Assembly (NCBI GenBank): GCA_041662965.1
Contig: JBAZRI010000003.1
Span: forward strand, 1,331-65,330
Length of the DNA: 64,000 nt
Reading direction: 5' to 3'
Origin: Patescibacteria group bacterium
GTDB taxonomy: Bacteria; Patescibacteriota; Patescibacteriia; Patescibacteriales; GWC2-42-12
Shown: positions 2,139-64,000 of the stretch, one piece after another
How positions within the stretch are numbered: the stretch's first letter is position 1
Layout of the letters: every line of letters begins with the position of its first letter
Notes under the pieces: model-generated
Told to the model about the DNA's origin: nothing
Database searches by the model: none
What the model saw: only the letters and a program-made list of their open reading frames with translations
Translations under genes and position numbers: made by a program

Positions 2139-2340
2139 ATTAATAAAATTACGAATTATAAATTACGAATTATGAATTTTATATCCACCGCTTACATATT
2201 TTATCCTCCATTATTCATAATTCTCTATTACAATATTAACCTATAATAAAAAATATATCAAGCCCTTGTTTGCCAAACGGTTTTATGGACTTTTTGCAAA
2301 CTGTATAAAAGATTTATACACTTGACCAGCAGTATTCAGG

Positions 2341-2482
2341 TTGGGTGAAATTTATAAAATTTTCGTGCTCGCCCCGTTAAATAGGCTTCGCCTCCCGCAG
2401 GGATTTAACGGGGCGAGGACTGTTTGAGCTCGAGTAATCTCGAGCGAGTTCCGCAGTAGAAAATTTTATGAATTTAACCCAA
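2341..2482. repeat. nested palindromic repeat, copy A (ftsA-ftsZ spacer), carrying an inner CCCCGTTAAAT hairpin at 2370-2415
   Basis: Outer arms are ttgggtgaaatttataaaattttc / gaaaattttatgaatttaacccaa. The conserved core is GAGGACTGTTTGAG-[stem-loop]-CGAGTTCCGCAGTAG, shared with the copies at 33372, 52011, 56448 and 63919. Confidence 0.8.
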
Positions 2483-2497
2483 CCGCCAGCTAAAAAT

Positions 2498-7805: not shown

Positions 7806-8177
7806 TTATTTTTTAAAAATTTCCCAAAAATACGGAAAAAATATAATCGCGCCGGTAATAATCGCGGCCAAAGAGGCTAATAACACTCCGGCCGCCATAA
7901 TATCTTTAATCTCTTTGACATAAGTATTAATTCTCGGCTTTAAAACATCGGTAATGCGCTCAACCGCGCTGTTGGCGATTTCCGCGACTAAAACTAAAGA
8001 GATCACCAGCGTTAAAATCGCCCATTCAATCCGGCTGATGCAAAAATAAAATCCTAAAATTACAACCGCCAAACTGACAAAAGTCTGGATTTTTAAATTC
8101 TGCTCTTCGCGGAAAGTTTTAAATAATCCTTTATAAGCGTAACCGAAGCTTTTAAATAATCTGCTTATTTTTATCAT
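7806..8177 (-). CDS. dgkA: diacylglycerol/undecaprenol kinase (DgkA family)
   Basis: 123 aa with 3 TM helices. YAYKGL and EIANSAVERITD motifs match prokaryotic DAGK. Confidence 0.85.
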   Translation of the reverse strand: MIKISRLFKSFGYAYKGLFKTFREEQNLKIQTFVSLAVVILGFYFCISRIEWAILTLVISLVLVAEIANSAVERITDVLKPRINTYVKEIKDIMAAGVLLASLAAIITGAIIFFPYFWEIFKK

Positions 8178-8629
8178 AAATGCTTCTTAATAAACTCCTC
8201 TCCTATTTTTATCATCTTCTCCCGCTGTTTTTCCGTTTTGTCATTATAACCCAATAGATGCAACAAGCCATGCGTTAAAATAAAAATCAATTCTTTTTCC
8301 GCGCTGTTTTTAAATTGCTTAGCCTGTTTTTTAACCTGATTATAATCAATAATAATTTCTCCGAAATAATCGCCGCCGCCAATAAACGATAAAACATCAG
8401 TCGCCTTATTTAAGCCGCGATAAGTCAAATTTAATTTTTTCATTTCCGCGTCGCCGATAAAAGCCAGAGAAATTTCTTTATTTTTAATTTTATTCACCCC
8501 GTTAAATTGCTTCACACCCCGCTTTAGCGGGGATTTAACGGGGTAAACTCGGCCAAAAACGCTTATGACTTTCTTTACTAGTTTTAAATTAATTTTATAA
8601 TTAGTCTGATTATTAATTTCTATTTTCAT
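8174..8629 (-). CDS. ybeY: rRNA maturation endoribonuclease YbeY
   Basis: HGLLHLLGYND zinc motif and TDVLSF. It overlaps dgkA by 4 nt. It contains an in-frame hairpin-repeat insertion at 8496-8544. Confidence 0.88.
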   Translation of the reverse strand: MKIEINNQTNYKINLKLVKKVISVFGRVYPVKSPLKRGVKQFNGVNKIKNKEISLAFIGDAEMKKLNLTYRGLNKATDVLSFIGGGDYFGEIIIDYNQVKKQAKQFKNSAEKELIFILTHGLLHLLGYNDKTEKQREKMIKIGEEFIKKHL

Positions 8630-33019: not shown

Positions 33020-33036
33020 ACACAATTAAGAAATAA

Positions 33037-33083
<47 letters not shown>

Positions 33084-33092
33084 TTTTCCCAT

Positions 33093-33329
33093 TTACCATC
33101 TTCTTCTCGGCTCTTCTTCAAGCTTGCCGATTTTCTTTAAATATTCTCTTTTTGATCTTAATTTCATGCCGACTAAAGCGCGTTTCTTTTGCTGGGTCTT
33201 ATTAATTTTCGGCTGAACATGCTGAACCTGGCGGGCCAAATATAATTTGCCGCTTTGCTGAAGTTTCTTATTGAATCTTCTTAGAAAACTCTCAAAACTT
33301 TCGCCTTTTTTTCTTTTGAATTCTGCCAT
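33093..33329 (-). CDS. rpsU: 30S ribosomal protein S21
   Basis: 78 aa, basic. ESFESFLRRFNKK and KREYLKK match the S21 pattern. Confidence 0.9.
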   Translation of the reverse strand: MAEFKRKKGESFESFLRRFNKKLQQSGKLYLARQVQHVQPKINKTQQKKRALVGMKLRSKREYLKKIGKLEEEPRRRW

Positions 33330-33371: not shown

Positions 33372-33515
33372 GCTCCGTGAATAATGGCAAATTTTCGTGC
33401 TCGCCCCGTTAAATCCCTACGGGAGGCGAAGCCTATTTAACGGGGCGAGGACTGTTTGAGCCCGAGTAATCTCGGGCGAGTTCCGCAGTAGAAAATTTGC
33501 TGTTATTCACGGAGC
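33372..33515. repeat. nested palindromic repeat, copy B (hisS-rpsU spacer), inner CCCCGTTAAAT hairpin at 33401-33446
   Basis: Same core as copy A, GAGGACTGTTTGAGCCCGAGTAATCTCGGGCGAGTTCCGCAGTAG. Outer arms are gctccgtgaataatggcaaattttc / gaaaatttgctgttattcacggagc. Confidence 0.8.
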
Positions 33516-37926: not shown

Positions 37927-38055
37927 GTAAAATGACAAATTTCCAATGACAAATGTCAAATCAATGTCAAATGGCTAAATAACAAATTAATTAATTTTTT
38001 GACATTTAGATTTTGGATTTGATTTGACATTAGTCATTTGTTATTATAAAAATTT

Positions 38056-40214: not shown

Positions 40215-40232
40215 CATTTGAACTTACTCTTG

Positions 40233-40362
40233 CGAGCCTAGAAAATTTAGTGGAATTTTTAGGCGGAAGCGAGGATAGATAATTTATTTGCTTGAGCCGT
40301 TTAGGCGAGTTATAAATTATCCCGAGTGCAGCCTAAAAATTCCCTAAATTTTCTCCAGCTCG
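40233..40362. repeat. divergent member of the nested palindromic family (copy F)
   Basis: 32 nt arms cgagcctagaaaatttagtggaatttttaggc / gcctaaaaattccctaaattttctccagctcg. The interior retains GCGAGGA...TTGAGCC..GGCGAGTT. Confidence 0.5.
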
Positions 40363-40419
40363 CGATTTTTGCGCCGCTTTATTAAAAAAGCGGCCCCGAG
40401 CGGAGCGGAAATAAAAAAA

Positions 40420-40456
40420 CGGGAGTCAGCTTATGCTGTTCCCGATTTTGTTTTTT
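40420..40456. terminator. bidirectional terminator
   Basis: Hairpin CGGGAGTCAGC-TTAT-GCTGTTCCCG flanked by A7 (40413-40419) and ATTTTGTTTTTT. Confidence 0.6.
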
Positions 40457-40753
40457 ATAATATCCACAATTCTGCCTAGAAGCCCAGGGATAACCCCGAT
40501 TTAAGGCTCCGGCTAAACCAGGAGGGAGGCTTAACTTTCACCGCTCCTAGGCAAAATTCTAAATACTATTTGTTGAGCATGTATAAAATATGTTATCATG
40601 AAAAAAGATAATTGCCAAAAATTAGATAGGTATAAAATAGCGCCCAAGATGCTACTTGCTTAGAAGGGATGCAAAATTTATAAATAATTAAGGAGGAAAA
40701 CTATTTATTAATTAGGCCCTTAAGCAAGTAACAGACTGGACGCTATAAAATTT

Positions 40754-40804
40754 ACCCCGTTAAATCCCAATCAAAGTTGGGACGCAAAGCGTATTTAACG
40801 GGGT
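40754..40804. repeat. CCCCGTTAAAT...ATTTAACGGGG hairpin element
   Basis: The 12 nt arms are identical to the copies at 2370, 8496 and 33401. The loop has its own hairpin, CCCAA-TCAAAG-TTGGG. Confidence 0.7.
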
Positions 40805-40818
40805 GAATTCAATAGATT

Positions 40819-40847
40819 ATATTATCATAACTTAAACCGTATGTCAA
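40819..40847 (-). promoter_or_regulatory. candidate minus-strand promoter in an ORF-free spacer
   Basis: On the minus strand, TTGACA (40847-40842), 17 nt, then TAATAT (40824-40819). It fires away from dprA into the structured region. Confidence 0.5.
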
Positions 40848-40888
40848 GGCTTATTTCCAATAATTCTACAGCAGACAAATTACAAAAA

Positions 40889-40918
40889 TTGGGCTAAATT
40901 TGGTAAAATTTAGCCCAA
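40889..40918. repeat. core-less mini-hairpin related to copy D of the nested palindrome
   Basis: ttgggctaaatttggtaaaatttagcccaa equals the outer arms of copy D without the core. The right flank cttcatgcaattaa is homologous to the flank of copy D, cttcatgtagttaa. Confidence 0.6.
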
Positions 40919-40945
40919 TCTTCATGCAATTAACTTAAATAATAT

Positions 40946-52010: not shown

Positions 52011-52107
52011 CTTGAGTTAAATTTAGAAAATTTTCGTGCGAGGACTGTTTGAGGCCGTGTTAAGCGGCCGAGTTCCGCAGTAGAAAATTTTCTAAATTTA
52101 ACTCAAG
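52011..52107. repeat. nested palindromic repeat, copy C
   Basis: Perfect outer arms cttgagttaaatttagaaaattttc / gaaaattttctaaatttaactcaag. The core is CGTGCGAGGACTGTTTGAG-GCCGTGTTAAGCGGCC-GAGTTCCGCAGTAG. Confidence 0.85.
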
Positions 52108-53040: not shown

Positions 53041-55935
53041 TTAAATCACAATATTAATCAGCTTCCCTTTAATAAATATTATTTTCACCACTTCTTTTCC
53101 CTCCAGCCATTTTATGATTTTTTCGCTTGCCAAAGCGATTTTTTTTGCTTCATTTTCGCTAATATCAGCCGAAACTTCAATCATATCGCGCACTTTGCCG
53201 TTTATCTGAATAACTAAATTAATAGTTTCGTCTTTAACCATCACCGGATCATATTCCGGCCATTTTTCTTTAAAAATACTTTGCTTATACCCTAACCCGG
53301 ACCACAGCTCTTCGGCCAAGTGCGGCGCGAACGGACTTAGAAGTATCAAATATAAAGTATAGTGTATTGGATATATTTTCTCTTCTTTCTCCAAAACATT
53401 AGCTAATATCATTAAAGCGCTAATTGCTGTATTAAATCTTAAATTTTCAATATCTTCAGTAACCTTTTTAATGGTTTTATTGACAATTAATTCCAACTTT
53501 TTTTCTCCTCCTTGATACTTTATACTTGATACTTTATACTGCATTTTCCAGATTTTCTCTAAAAATCTAACCTGGCCGATAATGCCTTTAGTATTCCAGG
53601 GCTTCATGTCTTCAAGCGGCCCCATAAACATTTCAAACAAGCGCAAAGCGTCGGCGCCGTACTGCTTTACCACGTCGTCAGGGTTAACCACATTACCTAG
53701 AGACTTGGACATTTTGCGGCCGTCTTCGGCTAAAATTATGCCTTGATGCCTTAATTTCTTAAACGGCTCGTCAAAATCAATATAGCCCAGATTATGCAAA
53801 ACTTTGGTAAAAAAACGGGAATAAAGCAAATGCAAAACCGTGTGTTCGGCGCCGCCGACGTATAAATCAACCGGCAGATATTTTTTTATCATGGCTTTAT
53901 CCGCGAAGGCTTTTTTATTGTTCGGGTCAGAGTAGCGGAAATAATACCAGGACGAGCAGACAAAAGTATCCATAGTATCCGCTTCCCGGCGCGCCGCGCC
54001 GCCGCACTTCGGGCATTTTACTTTATGAAAACTTTTTGATTTCATTAAAGGCGACTCGCCGGTTGGCATAAAATCCACGTCAGTCGGCAGTTTAACCGGC
54101 AAATCTTTTTCCTTGACCGCGACCTCGCCGCATTTAGCGCAATAAATTATGGGAATCGGCGCGCCCCAATAACGCTGGCGCGATACCAGCCAATCGCGGA
54201 TTTTATAATTTACTTTTTTAAAGCCGATTTTTTTCTCCTCCAGCCAGGCGGTGATTTTTTCCCTCGCTTCTTCCGAGGTTAGGCCGTTATATTCGCCTGA
54301 CTCAACTAAAATTCCGTCATCGCAGTAAGCAAAATCGCCGTGAAAATATTTTTTCCAGGCGAATTGCTGATTTTCAACGTTAATAAAAGATTCAATCTCA
54401 TTCTCCGGAATCCAAACTGCTTCATGCCTATCTTTCTCATTTTGATCAACAATCTCTTTTTCTTCATTCTCTAAATCAAAAATAAGATAATAAAAATGCG
54501 CGATTACATTTGAGCCTTTATGCGGCCTATAAAATTCGGCGTAGGTGGAGCCAGGAATTTGTTTTACGAATTTTAAATTTTTGTAGCCGGTCTCTTCTTT
54601 AATTTCTCTTAGCGCGGCGCCAACCAAGCCTCCTCCGTCAATCCCGCCGGTCGGAAAAGATTGCCAGCCGGTTATGCTCCATTTTAGGCAAAGATATTTA
54701 TTATCTTTCGGATTCTTTACGATAGCGCAAACTACTTCGCGTTTTTCCGTCTCCTTATCGGCTTTCGCCGGATTTTTTTGATCCAGCCAATAAGGAACAA
54801 TAACATTTTTTATCGGCAAATTATATTTCTTGGCGAATTCAAAATCACGCTCATCATGCGCCGGCACGGCCATAACCGCGCCGGTGCCGTAATGGGCTAA
54901 AACATAATCGGCCGCGAAAACCGGAATAGTTTCATTATTAAAAGGATTGATTAATTCCACGCCCTCTAGCTTAACGCCGGTTTTTTCTTTAGTATCGGCC
55001 ATTCTCTGCAGTTCGGTTTTCTTTTTAGCCTGGTTAATATATTCTTCCACTTCCGGCCAATTAGTAATTTGATTTTTTAGATCCTGAATCAACTTATGCT
55101 CCGGAGCTATCACGGCATAAGTCATACCGAAGACCGTATCTAAACGAGTCGTATAAACTCTAATTCGTAATTCGCAATTCGTAATTCGCAATTCAAATTC
55201 CGCGCCAGCGGATTTGCCGATCCAATTTTTCTGCGCCGCTTTAGTTGATTCCGGCCAGTCAACTTTATCAAGACCGTCTAGCAAGCCCGAGGTAATGCGT
55301 TTCTCGGCCTCCGTAGCTTTAGCGAAGGACGGCTCTATAAAATCGGTAATCTTAAAAAACCATTGCTCCAGATCTTTTTGACTCACCGGGTTTTTACAGC
55401 GGTCGCAAACTCCGCCCTCGGCCTGCTCATTAGCCAAAACCGTGTGGCACTTACCACACCAATTCACCTTGGCCTTATTTTTATAAGCCAAGCCGTTTCT
55501 GTATAGCAAAAGAAAAAACCATTGCGTCCATTTATAATAATCCGGATCGGAAGAATTCACTTCTCTGGACCAATCATAAGAAAAGCCCATCATCTTCATC
55601 TGCTTGGTGAAATTCTCAATGGCTTTTTCAGTGGTGATTTTAGGATGGGTTTTCGTCTTAACCGCGTAATTTTCCGCCGGCAGGCCGAAAGCATCCCAGC
55701 CCTGCGGATGCAAAACGTTTTTGCCTTTCATCCTTAAATAGCGCGATATAATATCCGTCGCCGTGTAGCTTTCTACGTGGCCGGCGTGCAGTCCGTTAGA
55801 CGACGGATAAGGGAACATATCCAAAATATATTGTTTGTCCGCCCGGCTTTTATCGTCGGCCTGAAAAAGCTTCGGCTGTTTAGCCCAAAATTTTTGCCAT
55901 TTGGCTTCTATTTTTTTGTGATCATACTTTTCCAT
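53041..55935 (-). CDS. leuS: leucyl-tRNA synthetase with an inserted Nudix-like domain
   Basis: HAGH (HIGH), KMSKS, editing-domain edges TTRLDTVFGMTYAVIAPEH and YGTGAVMAVPAHDERDFEFAKKY, and RDWLVSRQRYWGAPIPI. At 964 aa it is longer than the roughly 800-880 aa I recall as typical. Confidence 0.95.
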   Translation of the reverse strand: MEKYDHKKIEAKWQKFWAKQPKLFQADDKSRADKQYILDMFPYPSSNGLHAGHVESYTATDIISRYLRMKGKNVLHPQGWDAFGLPAENYAVKTKTHPKITTEKAIENFTKQMKMMGFSYDWSREVNSSDPDYYKWTQWFFLLLYRNGLAYKNKAKVNWCGKCHTVLANEQAEGGVCDRCKNPVSQKDLEQWFFKITDFIEPSFAKATEAEKRITSGLLDGLDKVDWPESTKAAQKNWIGKSAGAEFELRITNCELRIRVYTTRLDTVFGMTYAVIAPEHKLIQDLKNQITNWPEVEEYINQAKKKTELQRMADTKEKTGVKLEGVELINPFNNETIPVFAADYVLAHYGTGAVMAVPAHDERDFEFAKKYNLPIKNVIVPYWLDQKNPAKADKETEKREVVCAIVKNPKDNKYLCLKWSITGWQSFPTGGIDGGGLVGAALREIKEETGYKNLKFVKQIPGSTYAEFYRPHKGSNVIAHFYYLIFDLENEEKEIVDQNEKDRHEAVWIPENEIESFINVENQQFAWKKYFHGDFAYCDDGILVESGEYNGLTSEEAREKITAWLEEKKIGFKKVNYKIRDWLVSRQRYWGAPIPIIYCAKCGEVAVKEKDLPVKLPTDVDFMPTGESPLMKSKSFHKVKCPKCGGAARREADTMDTFVCSSWYYFRYSDPNNKKAFADKAMIKKYLPVDLYVGGAEHTVLHLLYSRFFTKVLHNLGYIDFDEPFKKLRHQGIILAEDGRKMSKSLGNVVNPDDVVKQYGADALRLFEMFMGPLEDMKPWNTKGIIGQVRFLEKIWKMQYKVSSIKYQGGEKKLELIVNKTIKKVTEDIENLRFNTAISALMILANVLEKEEKIYPIHYTLYLILLSPFAPHLAEELWSGLGYKQSIFKEKWPEYDPVMVKDETINLVIQINGKVRDMIEVSADISENEAKKIALASEKIIKWLEGKEVVKIIFIKGKLINIVI

Positions 55936-56447: not shown

Positions 56448-56546
56448 GCTTGGGCTAAATTTGGTAAAATTTTCGTACGAGGACTGTTTGAGGCAGCGTA
56501 GCTAGCCGAGTTCCGCAGTAGAAAATTTTATAAATTTAGCCCAAGC
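56448..56546. repeat. nested palindromic repeat, copy D
   Basis: gcttgggctaaatttggtaaaattttcgtacGAGGACTGTTTGAGgcagcgtagctagcCGAGTTCCGCAGTAGaaaattttataaatttagcccaagc. Confidence 0.85.
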
Positions 56547-56642
56547 TTCATGTAGTTAATAATTTTATAAAAGCAGGCTTAATCCGGATAAAGGACTAAG
56601 CCTGCTTGAAATATAAGCGGAGATTATCCGGCTCTCGCAACC

Positions 56643-57468: not shown

Positions 57469-57638
57469 AAATAAATGTTATAATATTTATACCCCATAAA
57501 TCTACAAATCAACTACGAATATGCAAATATTTTATAATATATTTTTCTATTATTCGTAAATTTGTAGCAGATTTGTAGATTTGCGGGAGAGATATGTGTT
57601 AGTTAATTTAATGATAAAGCTAATCTCAATAAATTTCA

Positions 57639-62441: not shown

Positions 62442-62651
62442 ATGCAATACGATATTGAGGCTAATATAATATCCTGGGAGATCGCTAAAGATCCGATTGA
62501 CCATGCCATAGATTTTGGCAATTTTATTATTCATTTGTCAAAAGCGAAAAAACCGGTTTTAATTGAAATACTGAACGCATCTAAGTTTGCCGGGCAGATG
62601 GATAAGATAAAAATTGAAGGCCTTAAAAAGCAGATGATGGAAACGAACTAG
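62442..62651 (+). CDS. DUF2283-like small protein (putative antitoxin-like)
   Basis: MQYDIEANIISWEI and PVLIEILNASKF resemble the DUF2283 pattern (YD.EAD.lyi...ivGIEIL.AS). Confidence 0.5.
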   Translation: MQYDIEANIISWEIAKDPIDHAIDFGNFIIHLSKAKKPVLIEILNASKFAGQMDKIKIEGLKKQMMETN

Positions 62652-62781
62652 AAATTTTCAATTACCAATGATCAATTTTCAATAAATTATAAAATTATCA
62701 ATTAAAAATTATAACCTTGAAAATTCATTGATAATTGTAAATTGAAAATTGATAATTAAAAGATTTAAAAAATAACAGAAT

Positions 62782-63918: not shown

Positions 63919-64000
63919 GCTTGGGCTAGTCATTTTTCGAAGCGAGGACTGCCTGCCTGCCGGCAGGCAGGTTTGAGCCCGAGTAATCTCGGACGAGTTC
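63919..64000. repeat. nested palindromic repeat, copy E (cut by the window edge), carrying a CCTGCCTGCCGGCAGGCAGG insert
   Basis: gcttgggctagtcatttttcgaagcGAGGACTG[cctgcctgccggcaggcagg]TTTGAGCCCGAGTAATCTCGGACGAGTTC. Confidence 0.75.

Follow-up and report, generated by a model that had tools for sequence, protein, structure and literature searches.

A candidate mobile hairpin repeat in Patescibacteria with an internal loop shared across bacterial phyla

The known hairpin repeats of bacteria, such as REPs, MITEs and Rickettsia palindromic elements (RPEs), are each confined to particular lineages, and the parts they conserve are their ends. REPs are 20-40 nt long and have a 5' GT[AG]G foot, and each REP family is tied to its own RAYT and its own lineage; RAYTs (TnpA-REP) are the Y1 HUH transposases that mobilise REPs and REPINs. 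IS200/IS605 elements have two different subterminal hairpins, a fixed target tetranucleotide and an active strand that lies on the lagging-strand template. IS608-type elements have a strong orientation bias relative to replication. Integron attC sites are defined by structure and are recognised on one folded DNA strand, which has a paired box, a central spacer that stays unpaired and has extrahelical bases, and a terminal stem-loop that varies. A further point of comparison is I-R3, a class I zinc-dependent DNA-hydrolysing deoxyribozyme that was selected in vitro and is composed of the strands GTTGA/AG and TAGTTGAGCT with two flanking helices. To our knowledge, I-R3 is artificial and has no natural counterpart.

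Here we describe a repeat found in a 64,000-nucleotide stretch of DNA, called the window below, from a Patescibacteria group bacterium (GenBank assembly GCA_041662965.1, contig JBAZRI010000003.1, positions 1,331 to 65,330). An earlier note on this DNA had proposed six copies of a nested palindromic repeat, all in one orientation; all six were found at the proposed places and all are on the + strand (Table 1). The core of the repeat has the layout GAGGACTGTYTGAG-[hairpin]-GAGTTCCGCA. Its 5' part, the 14-mer GAGGACTGTTTGAG, occurs four times in the window, always on the + strand, against a chance expectation of 0.07, and its 3' part, CGAGTTCCGCAGTAG, also occurs four times, where 0.75 occurrences are expected even with three mismatches allowed. 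We built a covariance model from 52 copies, taken from other genomes and from the window, and searched the window with it. Copies A to D scored 54.5-56.4 bits (E value about 1e-14), and no match was found on the minus strand of the window. We think there is about an even chance that the element, a non-coding imperfect palindrome of ~90-145 nt, acts as a non-autonomous mobile repeat.

Table 1. Copies of the repeat, their parts and related hairpins, in window positions (scores in bits are from the covariance model)
Feature	Position	Strand	Description
Copy A	2339..2484	+	ftsA-ftsZ spacer; 54.6 bits
Parts of copy A	arms 2339-2364 and 2459-2484; 5' core 2415-2428; apical hairpin 2428-2445; 3' core 2446-2455		
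Hairpin nested in copy A	2369..2414		second hairpin family (CCCCGTTAAAT...ATTTAACGGGG); site between GTGC and GAGGAC
Copy B	33372..33515	+	hisS-yqeY spacer; 55.6 bits
Parts of copy B	5' core 33447-33460; 3' core 33478-33487		
Hairpin nested in copy B	33401..33446		same 46-nt hairpin and same position as in copy A; interior inverted
Copy C	52011..52107	+	56.4 bits; cleanest of the copies; arms a perfect 25 bp
Parts of copy C	5' core 52040-52053; 3' core 52070-52079		
Copy D	56448..56562	+	hairpin 56448-56546, then 3' tail TTCATGTAGTTAATAA; 54.5 bits
Copy E	63919..64000 in the window, ~56 nt more beyond its edge	+	between convergent TPP-enzyme gene and rpoC
Palindrome in copy E	63952..63971		20 nt, perfect, CCTGCCTGCCGGCAGGCAGG; inserted in unpaired CTG^TTTGAG
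Copy F	40233..40362	+	diverged relative; 10.5 bits, E value 0.8
Arms-only hairpin	40885..40922		identical to left arm of copy D; 3' flank in common with copy D
Second hairpin family, solo copy	40755..40803		same family as the hairpin nested in copies A and B
Second hairpin family, further copy	8497..8543		inside ybeY, inserted in frame

The shared core that had been attributed to every copy is intact in A to D, is present in E in two pieces and is badly diverged in F. Copy E is complete on the parent contig (L238, 11137-11250) and scores 18 bits because the 20-nt perfect palindrome splits its 5' core. Copy F retains the core remnants GCGAGGA..TTGCTTGAG..CGAGTT..CCGAGTGCAG, parted by an added ~10-bp helix, and is at best a decayed relative. 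The arms are less uniform than the core: those of copy B belong to a different subfamily (GCTCCGTGAATAATGGCAAATTTTC), and those of copy E represent a second arm subfamily (..TTTTTCGAAGC / ACGAGAAAAA..) that was met again in the larger set of copies from the lineage. The arms-only hairpin either arose by deletion or is an arm element that is unoccupied. All genes flanking the copies are housekeeping genes (ftsA/ftsZ, hisS/yqeY, HAD hydrolase/EamA, PvlArgDC/LigD_N and pth/dprA). The copies were said to lie in spacers at gene 3' ends, and they do, with the placement of copy E corrected to a spacer between convergent genes; copy D has the PvlArgDC terminator on one side and the start of LigD_N on the other.

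One strand of the element folds into a long hairpin with an outer helix (P1), an internal loop and an apical helix (P3). P1 is made of the lineage-specific arms, and P3 is free in sequence. The internal loop is asymmetric, with GAGGACTGTYTGA on its 5' strand and GAGTTCCGCA on its 3' strand (14 + 10 bases), and holds a short invariant helix, GGAC/GTTC or the same shifted by one step of register. In the 52-copy alignment the loop reads GA-GGAC-UGUYUGA on the 5' strand and GA-GUUC-CGCA on the 3' strand, which allows GGAC/GUUC pairing with one G.U included. The two registers of this short helix are each supported by rare variants: G4-C6' from G4->C with C6'->G (L067, L021), and G4.U5' from G4->A (L114) and U5'->C (L019). 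The sole common variant of the loop is U10->C. In the same alignment P1, where it abuts the cores, and P3 covary, and the loop between them is invariant. Across the 52 sequences, 89% of P1/P3 cells were paired, compared with 30-41% when partners were slid by 1-3 columns, and changes on both sides were seen in 87 cells, compared with 31 in shuffles; seven of the eight variable pairs had double changes. Thus the stems stay paired while their sequence changes, as the earlier note had claimed, both in the window and across the 52 sequences. Covariation by itself does not tell whether the element works as RNA or as DNA, since the arms of any palindromic DNA repeat remain complementary. The predicted fold of the whole unit was much more stable than that of shuffled sequence in either form: -49.2 kcal/mol as RNA (z -10.7 relative to shuffled sequence), -29.7 kcal/mol as DNA on the core strand (z -10.5) and -27.4 kcal/mol as DNA on the complement (z -9.3).

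Some copies carry the same parts in a different order. In 21 copies the 3' core comes first, followed by a capped P1 and then by the 5' core, and the outer helix, left open, is P3. These forms are circular permutations of the others, the closed helix being P1 in some copies and P3 in others. A permuted sub-type found in Coriobacteriia and Hydrogenedentota has correlated changes on the two strands, with GCG-CAGTTCC accompanied by GAG-CAC.

By its FtsZ and by record names, the source organism is close to Candidatus Falkowbacteria. Close relatives of the source organism provided sites for comparison. The ftsA-ftsZ spacer is 359 nt long in the window and 126-144 nt long in three relatives (L123-L125) whose FtsZ is 94-97% identical to that of the window, and the difference is copy A; those three relatives had no copy in 63 kb. 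At the copy D locus, one relative (L127, PvlArgDC 94%) has an empty site, and another (L126, 97%) has kept one arm and the shared flank, a remnant that fits deletion between TTATAAA repeats. These empty and partly deleted sites bear out the mobile hairpin that had been listed as one option for the repeat. Copies decay or are split by insertions (E, F and the L126 remnant), and copy number is very different between relatives. In the lineage of the window, the element behaves as mobile DNA, with recent insertions at gene ends.

We searched metagenomes with the form of the repeat found in this lineage and obtained at least 108 stretches. Among the matches listed, the unit is 87-145 nt long in 82 related copies and has AT-rich flanks. 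The flanks share 0-2 nt in 78 of these 82 copies, which is not beyond chance and gives no target-site duplication, and comparison with the empty site at copy D likewise gave none; neither a clear target motif nor a fixed 5' flank was found in the 82 copies. CATG was found 2-4 nt past the 3' foot in 26 of the 82 copies, compared with 4-5 in control windows, and this tail on one side makes the unit asymmetric. The palindromes nested in the copies of the window sit in unpaired segments (GC^GA in A and B, CTG^TTTGAG in E), as expected if the single-stranded loops of folded DNA are targets.

The core is not private to the source genome. We searched one genome per species with the bare 14-mer and found at least 120 loci, although about half of such matches arise by chance. 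The 11-mer GAGTTCCGCAG was also present in 66 of 121 loci among the matches listed, mostly 6-38 nt downstream of the 14-mer and with self-complementary flanks. A chance 11-mer within ~100 nt has a probability on the order of 1e-5 to 1e-4 per locus, so this co-occurrence is not chance. Among these listed matches, the core was found with lineage-specific arms in about 13 phyla, and the 24-base core (14 + 10) had the same letters in about a dozen phyla. By record title, the carriers include Gamma- and Betaproteobacteria, Myxococcota and "delta proteobacteria", Campylobacterota, Spirochaetota, Melainabacteria, Patescibacteria, Actinomycetota (many of them Coriobacteriia), Lachnospiraceae, Bacteroidota, Omnitrophota, Latescibacterota, Nitrospirota and Hydrogenedentota. 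Cultured carriers include Dechloromonas hankyongensis, Niveibacterium, Enorma massiliensis, Collinsella tanakaei, Olsenella, Ellagibacter and Adlercreutzia, so the question of what the element does is directly testable. The base composition of the arms follows that of each host, as would be expected of elements that have long resided in each lineage and not of contaminants. In Beta- and Gammaproteobacteria, the motif is found in each arm of ~500-bp inverted-repeat elements, in copies paired on opposite strands 230-330 nt apart, and these elements also hold related GAGNNNCGCAG modules. A BLAST search of plasmids with a 36-nt consensus gave a simplified Ralstonia variant as its sole match. The same consensus had no match in E. 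coli genomes, a weak result as variable stems break the alignment, and the exact two-part pattern had 0 matches in IMG/VR viral contigs.

We determined how the copies are oriented relative to the flanking genes and to GC skew. In the mixed-phylum sample, 8 copies were in the ++ arrangement, 12 in --, 11 between convergent genes and 2 between divergent genes. Of the 33 copies that could be classified, 31 have at least one gene ending beside them. Across phyla the element thus takes either orientation relative to genes, which a cis-acting mRNA element would not do. The Falkowbacteria-type copies, 96 among the matches listed, have a strong strand bias. At tandem sites among the matches listed, both neighbouring genes are on the strand opposite to the element in 56 cases and on its own strand in 8; the core strand has negative GC skew in 52 of the 54 listed loci of at least 4 kb, and all nine listed loci with multiple copies have them co-oriented. 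The idea that the copies are oriented regardless of gene direction therefore fails in this larger sample of the lineage: the shared orientation is real, and it reflects a strand rule rather than indifference to gene direction. The mixed-phylum sample had no common orientation relative to GC skew (40 of 72 loci negative). Neither this tracking of strand within the lineage nor the cross-phylum conservation or circular permutation had been part of the earlier note.

The mismatches and loops of the hairpin also bear on the choice between DNA and RNA. Transition mismatches on the core strand comprised 54 G.T and 28 A.C across phyla, and 81 G.T and 15 A.C in the lineage set among the matches listed, the latter counts being inflated by shared ancestry. 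The strand that bears the wobbles is the C-rich strand, and by the usual skew rule it is the leading-strand template; the complementary strand, which is the lagging-strand template, has the CATG tag 5' of the hairpin, a layout that is REP-like. P3 is capped mainly by GNA triloops, including GCGAAGC, GCGTAGC and GCGCAGC, and GCGAAGC is the classic extra-stable DNA mini-hairpin. In the Falkowbacteria type, 26 of 96 P3 caps among the matches listed have two or fewer unpaired central bases and are thus perfect or near-perfect palindromes, and no enrichment of GNRA or UUCG loops was found among P3 caps. No promoter or terminator signal was found at the elements. No element was called as an intrinsic terminator (GC-rich hairpin with a T run), and copy D is downstream of a separate intrinsic terminator, in agreement with the view that the repeat is not a simple terminator. 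Together, loops, orientation, nesting, mismatches, strand bias and the lack of a promoter or terminator signal point to a folded DNA strand over an mRNA element.

To search for a partner of the repeat, we performed all-against-all clustering of the ORFs within 3 kb of 66 loci and found no recurring gene family. The ORFs of the window are housekeeping genes per Pfam, with no transposase among them, and the genes between paired copies are likewise housekeeping genes only, without a transposase. A transposase found between two copies in one locus (L063) is that of an independent IS, which has terminal repeats of its own and sits midway in a composite element. No RAYT gene was found in the window, in the 66 loci or in 1.68 Mb of carrier DNA, and tblastn against the 1.68 Mb of carrier loci gave no match to an IS200-like TnpA with IS608 and IS200 TnpA queries, which is a weak test.

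The Infernal search against Rfam that the earlier note had suggested matched no family: Rfam 15 at the gathering threshold gave 0 matches in the window, and none in a search of the 40.2-40.95 kb spacer. On 18 motif-bearing foreign loci, only an unrelated tRNA and TPP riboswitch were found. At E values up to 10, copy C had just sub-threshold matches to miRNA hairpins, with the hammerhead, twister, pistol, hatchet, hairpin and HDV models unmatched, which leaves the ribozyme-like option raised before without a matching model even at that threshold. A full-text literature search with the core strings and their complements returned unrelated primers only, and the literature on hairpin repeats, CPR repeats, new ribozymes and REP/RAYT systems gave no matching description. 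Bulge-helix-bulge motifs, mimicry of 23S/5S rRNA, dif/Xer sites and a coding mini-ORF were dismissed on direct reading of the sequence.

The repeat resembles several described systems in part. Like REPs and REPINs, it is a short extragenic palindrome at gene 3' ends with G.T in its stems, and its proteobacterial copies come in inverted pairs, as REPs often do; it also has an unpaired tag beside the foot of the hairpin on one strand, CATG/GTAG here as compared with GT[AG]G in REPs, and REPs too are thought to work as folded single-stranded DNA. It differs in that its unit is ~100 nt long, its conserved part is an internal loop common to phyla, and there is no universal GT[AG]G foot, most phyla having GCC or GCG after the core. 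In the lineage of the window, GTAG is found 3' of the hairpin on the core strand. Assignment to the REP/RAYT class was rejected, as GT[AG]G at the foot of a 20-40-nt hairpin is lacking and the unit measures 87-145 nt. With IS200/IS605 elements and PATEs, their miniature derivatives, the repeat shares the lack of target duplication, hairpin-based strand-specific features and strong orientation bias, but it has a single large hairpin, its wobble-bearing strand is on the opposite strand, and TnpA was not found in the weak tblastn test above. It is like attC in being defined by structure rather than sequence; the attC core sites RYYYAAC / GTTRRRY are absent, and the copies are dispersed singly among housekeeping genes, where attC sites would lie in cassette arrays near intI. 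Like RPEs, Correia elements and other MITEs, it is a small palindromic repeat spreading within genomes, whereas each of those families is found within a single genus or family of hosts and has its conserved sequence at the ends instead of in an internal loop. The second hairpin family, with its in-frame copy in ybeY, is RPE-like in this respect. None of the features named here as defining REPs, MITEs or attC sites was found in the repeat, although its way of life, as a small folded repeat at gene ends, is the same.

I-R3 is likewise a two-helix junction with conserved bases on both strands; its enzyme strand TAGTTGAGCT resembles CTGTTTGAGC of the 5' core, and its other strand, like that of the repeat, begins with GTT. 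GTTGA/AG is otherwise unlike GAGTTCCGCA, and the 5' core has an extra GAGGAC and one extra T. We did not assign the repeat to I-R3, with which it has only the stretch GTT(T)GAGC in common, and because the other strand differs we regard the resemblance as a lead only.

The explanation we favor, at roughly even chances, is a new kind of hairpin repeat, similar to REPs and MITEs, in which a folded single strand, probably of DNA, is recognised at the invariant internal loop that the phyla share. The internal loop would be the recognition site, and possibly the site of cutting and joining, of a trans-acting factor that would act on a folded single strand, most likely DNA exposed in replication, and this interaction would let the unit copy itself into AT-rich spacers. 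Several observations stand against this explanation: no partner protein, target duplication or clear target motif was found; a recognition site identical across phyla is unlike the lineage-specific REP/RAYT or MITE systems; and the wobble-bearing strand is placed opposite to the IS200/IS605 rule. The strand bias, moreover, is limited to one lineage and is absent from the mixed-phylum sample. It is possible, though we think it unlikely, that the repeat instead carries a small structured RNA motif, bound by a conserved RNA-binding protein or acting as a new small ribozyme, that rides a selfish repeat; the loop would then be an RNA module of the k-turn-like or tandem-GA type, and expression would be needed from master copies only. 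An invariant loop with free helices and permutation is the pattern of hammerhead and twister, the invariant helix holds a G.U, wobbles favor one strand and the RNA fold is very stable (the z score of -10.7 above). We take the 3' part of the loop to be k-turn-like, as it has, in this order, a C-stem, a bulge of 5 nt, GA facing GA and a stem, and CUGUUUGAG..CGAGUUC loosely recalls CUGAUGAG..CGAAAC of the hammerhead. The GA opposite GA beside P3 is indeed invariant, but the bulge is 5 nt (UGUUU) compared with the 3 nt of a k-turn. A hammerhead was rejected, as the junction is two-way and not three-way, the cores CUGUUUGA and GAGUU differ from CUGANGA and GAAA, and there was no covariance-model match. 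Also against structured RNA are the failure of every Rfam model, ribozymes included, at E values up to 10, the random orientation relative to genes across phyla, the wobble-bearing strand being antisense to genes in 56 of 64 Falkowbacteria-type tandem cases among the matches listed, the absence of a promoter signal, and loops that are GNA triloops or perfect palindromes and not GNRA/UUCG. A related proposal, which overlaps this one in that a new ribozyme is included there, is that the internal loop is itself active, as a natural self-processing single-stranded DNA or a new small ribozyme class, with cleavage and ligation chemistry that would move the ~100-nt hairpin without a dedicated transposase. 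Such a loop would explain the same 24 bases in ~13 phyla, both permutations and the lack of a partner gene, but we give it only a slim chance.

We consider it improbable that the element is mainly a structure that serves its host at gene ends, as proposed for REPs, with spread being secondary; it might stabilise mRNA 3' ends, keep transcription units apart or be bound by a universal DNA enzyme such as gyrase, a type IA topoisomerase or primase. A universal host partner would fit the cross-phylum conservation, co-orientation with replication could underlie the strand bias, and all but the two divergent cases of the 33 classifiable copies are at a gene 3' end. Against this, very close relatives lack the element both in 63 kb and in the orthologous spacers, so it is dispensable. 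Moreover, copies have decayed or been interrupted by insertions (E, F, L126), relatives differ greatly in copy number, and no known binding-site motif was recognised. The arms could also be the terminal inverted repeats of an ordinary MITE, specific to its lineage and moved by a DDE transposase of the cut-and-paste type, with a shared core that is a coincidence of common descent. Such an element would account for the long inverted arms, the small size, the many copies in spacers and the presence/absence polymorphism. We find this very improbable. DDE-type MITEs have conserved ends and a variable interior and duplicate their targets; here conservation is reversed, with arms that vary between and within genomes and an invariant center, and target-site duplication is lacking, a 3' tail makes the unit asymmetric, permuted forms exist, and the lone transposase between copies belongs to the IS with its own terminal repeats.

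Under the favored explanation, the core probably marks a site, widely shared and so far undescribed, that is recognised on a folded single strand. In contrast to the lineage-specific repeats described so far, the 14 + 10-base loop is invariant from Patescibacteria to Proteobacteria, Actinomycetota, Bacillota, Bacteroidota, Spirochaetota and others, a pattern that points to a widely shared partner or an intrinsic activity, undescribed so far. A DNA-level recognition site of this kind, if true, would define a mobility system or DNA-processing activity that is new and very widespread. The repeat also has practical consequences, as it can serve to mark recent change in the genomes of uncultured lineages, and it breaks metagenome assemblies: two short-read contigs of the same organism end inside copy D.

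The second hairpin family, a palindrome separate from the main repeat (the ~100-nt hairpin element with a conserved two-part core, copies A to F), is represented by four copies in the window, which share a conserved 11-bp stem around a variable interior. Two of these copies are nested in main-repeat copies A and B, and their interiors are inverted relative to each other, which suggests either inversion of the loop between the stem repeats or independent insertions at the same site. A further copy lies within ybeY, where it accounts for 17 extra residues compared to the YbeY of a close relative (L123), and this in-frame hairpin resembles an RPE insertion into coding sequence. Copy E of the main repeat is interrupted by a further palindrome, which could have arisen by snap-back or template switching, or could represent a third mini-element.

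Repeats and gene-free segments of the window
Position	Feature	Context
2369-2414	second-family hairpin	nested in copy A
33401-33446	second-family hairpin	nested in copy B
40755-40803	second-family hairpin	
8497-8543	second-family hairpin (CCCCGTTAAAT...ATTTAACGGGG)	in frame in ybeY (ORF 8174-8629, minus strand)
63952-63971	perfect 20-nt palindrome CCTGCCTGCCGGCAGGCAGG	inserted into unpaired part of copy E
33030-33098	7-nt unit ACTTTAT, ~8 tandem copies	immediately upstream of yqeY start
53496-53564	ACTTGAT/ACTTTAT stretch	within leuS reading frame
40215-40945	730 nt without genes: copy F, solo hairpin, arms-only hairpin, 26-nt inverted repeat	pth-dprA interval
40637-40746	26-nt inverted repeat	pth-dprA interval
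~2150-2215	second window-specific segment, ~60 nt	ftsA-ftsZ spacer, adjoining ftsZ start
57493-57587, 37938-38045, 62646-62767	long imperfect inverted repeats rich in AT, each arm 31-37 nt	spacers upstream of genes

The core motif of the main repeat, or a simplified relative of it, was also found within larger elements of other bacteria. In a Sulfuricella genome (L063, 1935-3451), an insertion sequence with a DDE_Tnp_1 transposase gene and its own terminal repeats occupies the centre of a composite element, both arms of which carry the motif. On the megaplasmid of Ralstonia pseudosolanacearum GMI1000 (L122, 302,9xx), a simplified relative of the motif, GGGGAGGCTGTCTGAGCGAAGCGAGTTTGCCTCCCC, lies within a longer palindrome; of the loop, this relative retains just one half, UGUCUGAG/CGAGUUU, and the simplified form was found again in 128 Ralstonia records. 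A Patescibacteria-style copy of the main repeat is also present at a locus from a record titled Gammaproteobacteria (L006), and the taxon label of that record may be wrong.

The main repeat breaks short-read assemblies: two Logan contigs of the same organism (L128 and L129) both end inside copy D, ~125 nt past the PvlArgDC stop codon.

Several other repeats and spacers of the window were recorded alongside these families. The stretch within leuS is related to the tandem repeat that precedes yqeY, and the segment adjoining the ftsZ start is missing in the three close relatives that lack copy A (L123-L125; FtsZ 94-97% identical). No Rfam family matched the stretch between pth and dprA, in which several inverted repeats lie together with copy F.
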